Below are positions 21,001 to 24,000 of a stretch of DNA of 51,632 nt, in pieces. The DNA is from an uncultured Gammaproteobacteria bacterium (GTDB lineage Bacteria; Patescibacteriota; Microgenomatia; Daviesbacterales; UBA10151). Positions within the stretch are counted from its first letter, which is position 1, and each line of letters begins with the position of its first letter. The stretch lies in the NCBI GenBank assembly GCA_964547465.1, contig CAZJNI010000008.1:1-51632 (forward strand), in the 5' to 3' direction. The position numbers are program-made.

Positions 21001-24000
21001 AGCCATTATTTATGACCCTAATGCCAAAAAAGTGATTGATGTGGCCCCGATTAATGTTGGCACACCTTCTGCTCAAGTGGCCAGTCCTTCAGCAAGTCCC
21101 AAGTAAAGTGTTCGCTCGTCTTTTGTTACTTGTGACTTCGCTCCCTCTATGTCATAATAACTTTGGTAGGGGATTATTAGATTGAAATTTCCCCGACTAA
21201 AGGACTTTAGATCCGCCATTGGCGGATCGCAAGATCCTGAAAGGTCTTATTTCGTGCGTATTAAGATTATCCTACGCCTGATTTTGGCGTTAATTTTTGG
21301 AACCCTTGCGGTTATATATTCTCAACTTATTCCGCCTATTGCTGGAGCTGACCCGCTACTTATCAGGTTTCTGGTAACACTCGTTTCTGCATTAGTCGGT
21401 TTTTTAGTATTTCCTGATATTGCCAGAAGAGTAACTTTGACCACCATGAGCCTTTTTAACTTTGTGATCCATCGGCTTTCATCTGAAGTTTTAAACCAGA
21501 TGGTCAGGATTTCAAAAGGAGCGCGCTTGATGAATTTTTCCCCAATTCTCCCTCAACCAGGGGCAATTTCTTACAGCAGGCCGTTAATTTTAGATACTTC
21601 GGCAATTATTGACGGCAGGATTTTGGATATAGCTAAAGTGGGTTTTATTAATGGTTTGATCTATATCCCAAAATACGTGCTTTTGGAGCTGCAGCAGGTT
21701 TCTGATTCATCTGATGATTTAAAGCGGGCCAGGGGGAGAAGGGGTTTTGAGGTGGTTGAGGAGTTAAAAAAGATTAAGGGGTTAAAGGTAGAGATTTGGG
21801 ATAAGGAACAAACAGGCAAGAGCGTGGATGATAAACTGCTTAATTTAGCCAAGAATCTGCATGGCAAAATTGTCACCACTGATTTTAATTTAAATAAGCT
21901 GGCTTCAATTTCTAATTTAGGGGTTTTAAACGTAAATGATCTGGCTAATGCTGTAAAAACAGTGTCTTTACCCGGGGAAGAGCTTAAAGTTAAGATTGCT
22001 CATATTGGAAAAGATTTAGATCAGGGAGTAGGGTATTTGCCGGATGGGACCATGGTAGTTATTTCAGGGGGGGCAGAAAAAATAGGACAAGCCTTAAGTG
22101 TGGAAGTTACCAAATCCATTCAAATCCCGGCCGGCAGGATGATCTTTGCAAAAGAAATTTAATCTCCTTACCAAGTTACTACTTGATTTTTAGCCCTATA
22201 GTGGTAAAATTGGCAATTAATATGCCTAATTCCGAAACAAATCCAGAGCGGAGGCTTTTCCTAAATATGCTATTATCCAGAAGAGATTTTTTAAGAAATG
22301 GGCTTATTGCAACTGCTGCTGCTGCTCGTATGTTAATTCCTCCAATTAAAGGTAATAAGGATAATCAACCCCAAATAGTTCCTGTTAATTATCAGCCAGG
22401 TAGAGGTGCGCAATCTTTTACCTGGGTTCCAGTTCCAATTTCCAAAGAAGGAGAAGAGTCTACCAGTTTTAACGAAGGGGGAGCTATGGATGATTATGAT
22501 AGAGGAGATATTACTCTTAACGGTGGTAATTCTTTAGCTGCTAGAAATGGAAGATATACTCGTTTAGTTCTTAGAGAGTATTTTGATGAACTCTTGGAAA
22601 GTGGGGAATTGAATCCTGAGTGGGCTGGTCATTGCTATGGTGCTTCATCAGCATCTTGGGAATGTCCAATAATAGATGGTCCGATTAACTTATTCGGTGT
22701 TGAGATACCTGCTATACACAGAATGCAACTTGCTACTTGGTACTATTCAACAATGAGATACGATGAATGGCTTGAAATAAATGATGATGTCATAGCTGAA
22801 ATTGAAGATGTACACTTTGCTGACGGTGAGGGGATAGGGGTTAATCATACTCCTGTACTCAATCAAGAATGGTGGGGAACCCTTATTGAAGTAAAACAAA
22901 AAGGAAGAGAGTGGATATTAAGAGATTTCCGAAAATTAAGTCCTGAAGATAATGTTGGGAGAGACGGAATTTTGACGATAGATCCTCATGAATTAACTTC
23001 CGCACGCATTTTTCACTATGATGGTCCCCATCCGGGGAAAGAGAATGACTACAATTATTTTGATCGTAGAATCTTAGGAGTAATTATTGGTACTCATCAA
23101 CTAGTTGCTTGAGTTTTCCACAAATAAATTTTTTCTGTTAATAACAAAAAGTATATCCATTAGTTAAGTTGTTATATCAAGCCAAACTAAGTATGATATC
23201 CGTTTATAGAAACTCTAGGCCTACCATAATTTACCATAAAAAAACCTATGGGACTTATAAAACTTGACAAATAGTATTTTTCCTGATATTGTTAAAACAG
23301 AATGTTTGTAACCAGATTTAATTTCGGTTTGAAGAAAGAGAAAAGGGTAAGAGAAAAGAAAGCAGATTTGGTAAATGAACAGGTTAAGAAAGTTTTGACA
23401 GATTCCGACCAGAAGTTAATTCTGATGGTTAGGGGTTAAAAAAAGGAAAGTGCGAAGCAGACGGACGCACTTTCCTTTTTTGTGCACTTTGAAAATATAT
23501 TTTTATTTGATACTTTTGGCCGCAAAAGTATCACAAAACTCTCTTGCATAAAAGTCGGACTAAATTTCTCGTTTTGTTGATCGGGGGCCCCTCGGAAATT
23601 CTCCACTATCGTGGTGTCAGTTTCCGTTTCCCCTGATAACAAAGCCTCGAAATTTTTAACGTCCTTTGTTTCTGATGCAAGAATTTAAAAGAATTTGAAG
23701 AAATTTATCAAAAAAAAGGCAAAAAAAGAGCATTTAGACCGAAGGTCGCAAGGCTCTTTTAGGAAAAATTTGGAATTTTTCCGTAAAAAAAGAGCATTAC
23801 TACCGCAGACGGACTCGAATAGCAATGCCCTTTTAATTTATTTCGAAAACAACTTCAAGAGCAGATAGAAGTTGCTTTCACCTACTACACTAGAGCAATT
23901 TTGTAGCAGTTGTCAATACCCCAATTTTAGGCACGAATTTGCAAAATTGGGTACATAATTAGTTCAGATTTATCTTGGTTGAAATCTTTATTGGAGGCTA

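Follow-up and report, generated by a model that had tools for sequence, protein, structure and literature searches.

Bacteria of the candidate phyla radiation (CPR) have tiny genomes with very short spacers between genes, and to our knowledge almost nothing has been reported on their non-coding RNAs and small mobile elements. What is a strongly folded unit of ~190 nt doing, twice, in the intergenic DNA of one such genome? The genome is that of an uncultured bacterium placed in the Daviesbacterales (Microgenomatia), and the stretch analysed is contig CAZJNI010000008.1 of assembly GCA_964547465.1, whose full 51,632 nucleotides are called the window below. A sequence-only reading of this window had reported the unit, a hairpin followed by a long rod, once on each strand, had seen both copies oriented towards surface-protein genes, and had suggested either an undescribed cis-regulatory RNA or a mobile element resembling REPINs or miniature inverted-repeat transposable elements (MITEs). 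We find that the two copies belong to a family of seven, that the fold of this family is conserved through compensatory changes, and that the element is limited to a few Daviesbacteria-like (Microgenomates, CPR) genomes.

Two inverted copies in the window

Both units are present, copy A on the plus strand and copy B on the minus strand, and their parts and the spacers that hold them are as follows (L numbers denote loci outside the window):

23509..23532 (+), 5′ hairpin of copy A, GATACTTTTG-GCCG-CAAAAGTATC, a type-2 variant, like those of L022 and L024
23542..23682 (+), rod of copy A, an imperfect hairpin of ~140 nt with the conserved UUAAC bulge on its 3′ arm
23582..23638 (+), apical core of copy A, near-identical across all copies
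23683..23693 (+), conserved A-rich 3′ tail of copy A, ATTTAAAAGAA, at which similarity between copies stops
23482..23784 (+), lineage-specific spacer between hairpins T1 and T2 that holds copy A, plus an extra terminator-like hairpin at 23721-23761
40084..40107 (-), 5′ hairpin of copy B, CACACTTTTG-TAAC-CAAAAGTGTG, a type-1 variant, the same in L005, L016 and L019
39936..40073 (-), rod of copy B including the apical core
39923..39935 (-), conserved A-rich 3′ tail of copy B, TTTATTAAAAGAA
39868..40158 (-), 291-nt spacer that holds copy B, from the stop codon of a SurA-like gene (40159-40161) to the ATG of a surface-protein gene (39867)

Each copy consists of a 10-11-bp 5′ hairpin, an A-rich linker and the ~140-nt rod, and together they form the longest inverted repeat pair that a repeat search detected in the window (85 nt at 84% identity). 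The 32-nt core pattern GGAAATTCTCCACTANNGTGGTGTCAGTTTCC matches the window twice, at 23594-23625 (+) and 39991-40022 (-), where shuffled sequences lead one to expect no match. In copy A the apical core combines a GGGGG:CCCC helix with a C-rich internal loop (CCCCUC) and an irregular 14-bp hairpin, which is interrupted by a UC bulge and a U.U mismatch; over ~57 nt of this apex the two copies differ by one extra G in copy A and by two loop bases (TATC in A, TAAA in B), just as the sequence-only reading had described, and the covarying outer stems that it listed are all there (TCTTGCAT/ATGCAAGA versus TTCTGCA/TGCAGAA, GGAC/GTCC versus GACC/GGTC, and AAATTT/AAATTT versus AAAATC/GATTTT). Predicted fold energies are -64.1 kcal/mol for copy A and -63.2 kcal/mol for copy B (z = -6.3 and -6.8, respectively), values that none of 200 shuffled sequences equalled. 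The earlier statement that no Rfam family matches holds as well: Rfam 15 applied at the gathering threshold to the whole window returned rRNA and tRNA only, and at E <= 10 the two copies gave only chance matches, to microRNA-like or short hairpins outside the rod.

A family of seven copies

Sequence collections were scanned with the pattern GGAAATTCT-N(10-16)-TGTCAGTTTCC (with N9-17 for the GTDB species representatives). The 22 matches among metagenome contigs include four full-length homologues (L005, L016, L019 and L022), the rest being chance matches; L005, L016 and L019 are three contigs from one groundwater metagenome, and L022 sits on a short contig. Among the 17 matches in GTDB species representatives three are true (L025, L036 and L024): across the element L025 equals L019 and L036 equals L016, both coming from Ca. 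Daviesbacteria RIFCSPLOWO2_02_FULL_41_8, where the loci lie on MFDZ01000010 and MFDZ01000029, while L024 comes from the metagenome-assembled genome DBS2-4.bin98. The total is seven distinct copies (winA and winB, the window's copies A and B, with L005, L016, L019, L022 and L024), in all of which the same fold is predicted, and the spread is patchy, with the core present in just 2 of 185,579 species representatives. Viral contigs gave no match to the core pattern and eight matches to a pattern for the 5′ hairpin, all of them chance hairpins lacking the rod; BLAST against plasmids found no match to the element, and BLAST against phages found only a marginal 37-nt match to two Inovirus records (E = 4e-3). 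A covariance-model (CM) search over ~460 kb of examined loci recovered no further, degenerate or diverged copies, and literature searches found no description of such an element in CPR bacteria.

The copies differ considerably from one another, with pairwise identities of 69% for winA and winB, 77% for winB and L019, and 87% for L022 and L024, and the nearest relative of a copy is not found within its own genome. Two types of 5′ hairpin occur, type 1 (CACAC..TAAC..GTGTG) in winB, L005, L016 and L019 and type 2 (GAYAC..GGYCG..GTRTC) in winA, L022 and L024, so that the window genome carries one copy of each; the window Rho protein is 84% identical to Ca. Daviesbacteria Rho, and this identity places the organism.

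As a separate observation, five of the chance-pattern matches (L002, L010, L015, L020 and L021) are mutually related through a motif of the form …GGAAATTCTTGAC…CTGTCAGTTTCC(C/G)GG(A/G)A…, which might mark some other conserved element, unrelated to this one, in a different group of organisms.

Covariation and the conserved centre

The seven copies were aligned by MAFFT without structural information, and the RNAalifold consensus of this alignment contains 61 pairs, at which 91.3% of alignment cells are standard pairs. Changes on both sides of a pair occur in 22 of the 61, as compared with 12.1 +/- 2.1 in shuffles (0 of 500 reach 22) and 4-8 in controls with slid partners, which bears out the earlier claim of an undescribed structured element with real compensatory change. 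The double changes are concentrated in the basal and middle helices of the rod (helices 2-4; 20 of 37 pairs), including those of copy A, whereas in the apical helix (helix 5) 13 of 14 pairs are invariant, though the terminal loop varies in sequence and length (3-5 nt). In the 5′ hairpin ten pairs are kept in all seven copies, two of them changed on both sides. Unpaired positions are conserved too, among them the UUAAC bulge on the 3′ arm and the C-rich internal loop, which reads CCCCUC or, in five copies, CUCACCCCCUC; so are a T-rich run 5′ of the hairpin and the ~10-nt A-rich tail 3′ of the rod. Similarity between copies ends ~8 nt before the hairpin and ~10 nt past the rod, and it is the centre of the element, not its ends, that is conserved.

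Small ORFs (open reading frames) of 72-97 aa lie over some copies (72 aa over copy B), and a coding explanation was rejected because the frame is broken between copies: no reading frame survives the 1-nt and 5-nt indels in the core together with loops of 3, 4 or 5 nt.

Which strand carries the fold is a separate matter. The sequence-only reading had described the wobble pairs as G.U on this strand and A.C on the other, and this is weakly true: G.U outnumbers A.C on this strand by 26 to 9 when alignment cells are counted, and by only 8 to 7 when columns are counted. Because both strands fold about equally, thermodynamics leaves the strand unfixed, and the sole consistent asymmetry between strands lies in the invariant U.G pairs of the core.

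Syntenic relatives lack the element at either window site

For copy B we compared the three SurA-like genes most similar to that of the window (L040, L041 and L043; 57-59% identity). In each of these loci the next gene starts 2-5 nt past the stop codon, as against the 291-nt spacer of the window. That next gene is a homologue of the giant protein of the window (E = 2e-73 and 1e-43), and a CM search found no element at this site in L040, L041 or L043.

For the copy A site we compared Rho-anchored loci from four independent Daviesbacteria assemblies (the empty-site loci are L044-L049). The shared gene order runs S1, RadA, LytR_C, PIN/TRAM, a ~300-aa protein, a small ORF (called in three of the four relatives), the surface operon, Rho and LysM/M23, after which three of the four continue with a minus-strand Wzy_C, then a MerR gene or domain and a large minus-strand protein (about 1000 aa or more). 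The CM search of these loci showed the element to be absent from all four assemblies. Three of the four relatives align over the end of the small ORF and hairpin T1 (L047 is without T1), and all four over hairpin T2 with its downstream region; the T1-T2 spacer measures 0 nt in L047, ~75 nt in L046, ~150 nt in L044, ~190 nt in L045 and ~300 nt in the window, and its sequence is unrelated in each genome. The 16.3-kb stretch that separates the two inverted copies is not seen to be inverted: its gene order and orientation match those of the relatives.

Of the sites that could be compared, both hold the element in the window lineage alone, and the position of the element is not conserved. Taken with the covariation, this calls for a ~200-nt unit that is mobile, or that has at the least been gained repeatedly in particular lineages, and for selection, or some other process, to maintain its fold.

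The flanks of the copy A site hold conserved features of their own. T1 (23438-23481) and T2 (23785-23836) are terminator-like hairpins with a common loop, GCAGACGGAC, and have equivalents in L044 (6048-6094 and 6248-6300) as well as in L045, L046 and L047; the T1 stems covary between genomes, and T2 is ~100% conserved over 45 nt, exceeding the neighbouring genes. Flanking a spacer that is different in every genome, T1 and T2 could be the borders of an insertion hot spot or a regulatory pair. Just upstream, at 23302-23439 (+), an unannotated ORF of 45 aa (MFVTRFNFGLKKEKRV...QKLILMVRG) has a promoter-like site (23264-23292); the ORF recurs in L044-L047 with its sequence and position conserved (as genes of 45-55 aa, or uncalled).

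Gene contexts

The seven copies occupy seven different gene contexts, and a surface-protein gene lies downstream of the window copies only (2/7). The other five are placed as follows:

L019, ComM-like gene upstream, MFS transporter gene downstream
L016, divergent Zn-ribbon gene upstream, sigma-70-r4 protein gene downstream
L022, MltG-like gene upstream, RibF-like gene downstream
L005, 282-aa gene upstream, convergent gene ~35 nt off downstream
L024, IF-2 gene (after NusA) upstream, convergent membrane-protein gene ~10 nt off downstream

Copy B sits 51 nt past the SurA-like stop codon and 68 nt ahead of the ATG of the 2255-aa repeat surface protein. Copy A is separated from the collagen-like/PKD/fn3 operon by ~520 nt that hold two terminator-like hairpins and a promoter, the order 3′ of the copy being the hairpin at 23721-23761, the T2 hairpin, a conserved stretch of ~300 nt and the promoter, a perfect TTGACA-17-TATAAT at 24138-24166; relatives without the element share this conserved promoter region.

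These contexts bear directly on the proposal that the element is a cis-regulatory leader (riboswitch, attenuator or processive antiterminator) of surface or secreted-protein genes. Both window copies do point to such genes, one to the collagen-like/PKD/fn3 operon and the other to the 2255-aa repeat protein, and the terminator-like hairpins 3′ of copy A could be ones that an antiterminator overrides. Yet the other five copies lack this orientation to surface-protein genes, since the genes downstream of them encode an MFS transporter, a sigma-70-r4 protein and a RibF-like protein or are convergent (two copies), so that no consistent position as a 5′ untranslated region before functionally related genes emerges. 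Moreover, relatives without the element keep the same surface operon with its upstream region and promoter, and their SurA-like and surface-protein genes abut with no leader between them. We regard a leader role as very improbable: the association with surface-protein genes is a coincidence of the window, and a caution as to how a context seen in one window can vanish once homologues are examined.

One other structure in this region is of interest in its own right. A hairpin at 23990-24030 (+), with an invariant loop, CTAGGGCAGGGA, and stems that covary between the window, L044, L045, L046 and L047, lies within the conserved region before the surface operon, upstream of the promoter at 24138-24166, and on sequence grounds would be a better candidate cis-regulator of that operon than the ~200-nt element.

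Orientation with respect to transcription and replication

Six of the seven copies are co-oriented with their upstream gene and start ~10-75 nt after its stop codon; the exception, L016, adjoins a divergent gene and is co-oriented with the gene downstream, and no copy is antisense to both of its neighbours. Nearly all of the window has a positive GC skew, and copies A (+) and B (-) therefore lie opposite to one another relative to replication, while each follows the local direction of transcription. The orientation of the element does not follow replication, which argues against a replication-strand-specific mechanism involving single-stranded DNA and for a constraint related to transcription.

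This evidence weighs on the possibility that RNA is irrelevant and that the element is a DNA-level site, acting as a folded single strand or cruciform in recombination or integration, or as a single-stranded replication or priming signal, and recognised by a protein that reads the hairpin and bulges. Such a site would account for the nearly equal folding of the two strands and for the 8 versus 7 columns of G.U and A.C pairs; the core, kept on both arms with fixed bulges, recalls the hairpin sites of HUH enzymes or integron integrases, and the element is insertion-like, with neither target-site duplications nor terminal inverted repeats. It would not explain why the window copies lie opposite to each other with respect to replication and both along transcription, and on the other strand the invariant U.G pairs of the core become A.C mismatches. 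In addition, no recombinase, HUH or integrase gene lies nearby, no plasmid, phage or viral contig carries a match, and the boxes that would mark an attC site (R″/R′) are wrongly placed. We consider a purely DNA-level site quite improbable.

A proposed transcribed element, formerly or currently mobile

The reading we favour, at a probability of about 0.48, is that of an intergenic element of ~200 nt, low in copy number and non-autonomous, which is or once was mobile, is transcribed with its neighbours and has an RNA fold under selection. Such an element would have landed in short spacers just downstream of genes, along local transcription, and would be transcribed inside the neighbouring mRNA. 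For copy B and L022 we infer that sense transcription, as part of a polycistronic or 5′-UTR RNA, is close to unavoidable, because the 42-68 nt before the next co-oriented start codon leave no room for a promoter. The transcript would fold into the 5′ hairpin and the ~140-nt rod, and selection would presumably act on this RNA fold, with the rod serving as a determinant of processing or stability, for example as a substrate of RNase III or a block to 3′ exonucleases. Its insertion may also uncouple genes that were translationally coupled beforehand. A protein, whether the enzyme that mobilises the element or an RNA-binding factor of the host, may recognise a putative site composed of the invariant apex together with the UUAAC bulge and the 5′ hairpin. 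Genes that are tightly coupled in relatives have been parted by the insertion, in one case right before the 2255-aa surface-protein gene, and if the fold affects mRNA processing, it would offer CPR organisms a route to rewire operon expression. It is also a clean CPR case with strong covariation.

Several observations weigh against this reading. Template switching could in principle produce compensatory changes in a DNA palindrome even if no selection acted on the RNA. Terminal inverted repeats conserved between copies are absent, as the base of the rod differs and covaries and the 5′ hairpin lies outside the palindrome; no target-site duplication was found, in that no direct repeat recurs at a consistent offset among the seven copies (the 6-8-mers that the flanks share lie at differing distances and are explained by AT-richness). 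Among the proteins of the 51.6-kb window there is no transposase, integrase or reverse transcriptase. The copy number is merely 2-3 per genome, the centre is the most conserved part, unlike the ends that transposases recognise, and none of the seven copies are so nearly identical as to indicate recent transposition.

The main rival view sees the element as a small set of trans-acting structured RNAs, each transcribed on its own, whose small genes have spread horizontally, with the apical domain and the C-rich loop (CCCCUC or CUCACCCCCUC) serving as a protein site or as a seed for G-rich, Shine-Dalgarno-like targets and the stems as scaffold. An invariant centre with unpaired conserved bases and covarying stems is typical of paralogous small RNAs (sRNAs) and protein-binding RNAs. 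A -10-like hexamer (A2, T6, >= 4/6) is found 4-10 nt upstream of the hairpin in six of the seven copies, as compared with 18% of background positions, and copy A, between the strong terminator T1 and a terminator-like hairpin ~40 nt downstream, has the layout of an sRNA gene, while L016, which adjoins a divergent gene, would need a promoter of its own. On the other hand, the hexamer has no -35 box and lies outside the conserved unit, and since conservation stops ~8 nt before the hairpin, the unit does not appear to carry a promoter along. No conserved terminator follows either, downstream hairpins being inconsistent across the seven copies and the rods of L005 and L024 ending 10-35 nt before the stop codon of a convergent gene, and seven loci with empty sites in relatives would still demand a mechanism of mobility. 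We consider independently transcribed sRNAs possible, if somewhat doubtful.

A bolder reading, which we judge unlikely, is that of a horizontally mobile gene for a structured RNA with a dedicated putative protein partner, forming a new, CPR-specific RNA class. Such an RNA might serve an RNA-guided or RNA-dependent system as its guide or scaffold, or might be selfish and promote its own spread; the apical domain would then be the protein handle and the C-rich loop the effector or seed. Were the RNA trans-acting or protein-partnered, it would represent a new class of RNA.

Comparison with known elements and RNAs

The element does not fit the definitions of MITEs, REPINs, attC sites, 6S RNA or any Rfam family. 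Seven copies at seven loci, with both window sites empty in relatives, show the variable position and the filled and empty sites expected of a MITE, which lends support to the mobile-element alternative of the sequence-only reading, though not to its specific labels. The element is not a MITE, for want of conserved terminal inverted repeats and target-site duplications. As to a related autonomous insertion sequence with the same ends, the window holds no transposase, and the collections scanned gave no other occurrence of the core. REPIN or REP-RAYT was likewise rejected, because the centre rather than the ends is conserved and no Y1, HUH or RAYT protein occurs among those of the window. In integron attC sites the R″ box (RYYYAAC) at the 5′ side pairs with R′ (GTTRRRY) at the 3′ side, the centre is variable and an integrase or cassette array is nearby; here the sole AAC motif (UUUAAC) forms a bulge within the 3′ arm, the centre does not vary and the window contains no integrase or array. 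6S RNA is a rod whose large central bubble mimics an open promoter, whereas the element has no 6S match at E <= 10 and its largest internal loop is of 6-11 nt opposite 4 nt.

Other candidates fared no better. The CUGAUA of the window copies, which might suggest a hammerhead, is not conserved in the other copies. The apical hairpin is not a group II domain V, as there is no Intron_gpII match and the catalytic triad AGC/CGC is missing where it would be expected, at the 5′ base of the helix (CGGAAA instead). A closing helix like the a1/a2 of retrons is predicted inconsistently, in L005 and L022 alone, and no reverse transcriptase lies nearby; a type I toxin is contradicted by translated arms that are not hydrophobic and by the lack of a conserved frame. 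The element should not be filed under MITE, REPIN, attC, 6S RNA or any Rfam family.

The best functional parallel is probably with bcr1 of the Bacillus cereus group, which the element resembles, and enterobacterial ERIC and Neisseria Correia elements also appear to fit. The bcr1 element is ~155 bp long, intergenic and transcribed, has a non-conserved distribution between related genomes, and forms two independent stem-loops whose RNA structure is kept by compensatory changes (PMC3184786). The likeness extends to size, intergenic location, non-conserved distribution, the two stem-loops and the compensatory changes; there is no sequence relation, bcr1 has 5-bp flanking direct repeats whereas none were found around the element, it occurs in many copies as opposed to 2-3 per genome, and its transcription has been shown whereas that of the element is predicted. 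ERIC and Correia elements are MITEs of proteobacteria, imperfect palindromes of 100-160 bp, intergenic and often at gene 3′ ends, co-transcribed as long RNA hairpins that change mRNA decay, an effect that ERIC elements have when they lie downstream of genes (PMC3184786). With them (the Correia elements also being known as NEMIS) the element shares the long imperfect intergenic palindrome, but theirs have conserved terminal inverted repeats, a TA duplication and tens to hundreds of copies, whereas in the element it is the centre that does not vary and the ends that covary, the 5′ hairpin is an addition outside the palindrome, and no target-site duplication was found.

REPINs are similar in being hairpin-forming intergenic repeats of conserved structure. 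They differ in consisting of two inverted, conserved REP units around a variable spacer and in depending on RAYT, whereas in the element it is the apex that is conserved, the window has no RAYT/Y1 transposase and orientation is independent of replication. Among RNAs, paralogous trans-acting sRNA families such as Qrr and RsaE/RoxS, with their C-rich loops, and rod-like protein-binding RNAs (6S, Ms1) recall the element in an invariant unpaired C-rich segment within variable, covarying stems, in several paralogues per genome and in the overall shape of a ~190-nt rod; in contrast to these, the element has no Rfam match, no large central bubble and no conserved promoter or terminator, and its loci are not syntenic. 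Its anatomy is unusual and its copy number very low, and it occurs in a phylum in which, as far as literature searches show, no element of the bcr1/ERIC type has been described.

A palindrome of ~35 nt that does resemble REP sequences, GTCATTGCGAGG...GCGAAGCGAC...GTGGCAATCT, is unrelated to the element and recurs in these Daviesbacteria genomes. In the window it is found at 3106-3150 (-), 3580-3615 (+), ~27470-27505 (-) and 33049-33084 (-), and elsewhere at 829-873 of L005, 4728-4772 of L019, 737-771 of L024, ~9466-9500 of L044 and ~18951-18990 of L045; in L005, L019 and L024 it lies 21-25 nt upstream of the element. Some occurrences are inside ORFs, namely the N-terminal region of Rho (window and L044) and the RadA ORF (3580-3615), and resemble in-frame palindromic insertions.

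Other features of the window

Around copy B, tandem repeats of 342 nt (35517-37112) lie inside the ORF of the 2255-aa surface protein (33100-39867, -), and in relatives homologous repeat proteins likewise come after the SurA-like gene; immediately upstream of the SurA-like gene cluster is an AbiEii toxin/AbiEi antitoxin pair (41150-42425, -).

The region at 4644-19773, ~15 kb of glycosylation and cell-envelope genes between RadA and LytR_C, encodes PMT, a MetW-like methyltransferase, two GT4 proteins, a DegT aminotransferase, three GDSL/AlgX-like proteins, a carbamoyltransferase and a TPR protein. RadA and LytR_C are adjacent in three of the four relatives, and ~90 nt apart in L045; judged from sequence comparison, the region is most readily seen as an inserted island.

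Tandem motifs with a period of 9-10 nt, some at gene ends and some in ORFs, are of two kinds, one TTAAGTTAC-like and one G-rich (GGGGTATTT/GGGAGATTA-like), and are found at 9746-9785, 28721-28778, 30092-30140 and 32703-32742, and at 5286-5340, 7502-7536, 12740-12788, 13057-13126, 13340-13379 and 29897-29942. Finally, a tandem pair of tRNA-Ala genes with the anticodons CGC and GGC occupies 29944-30091 (-).

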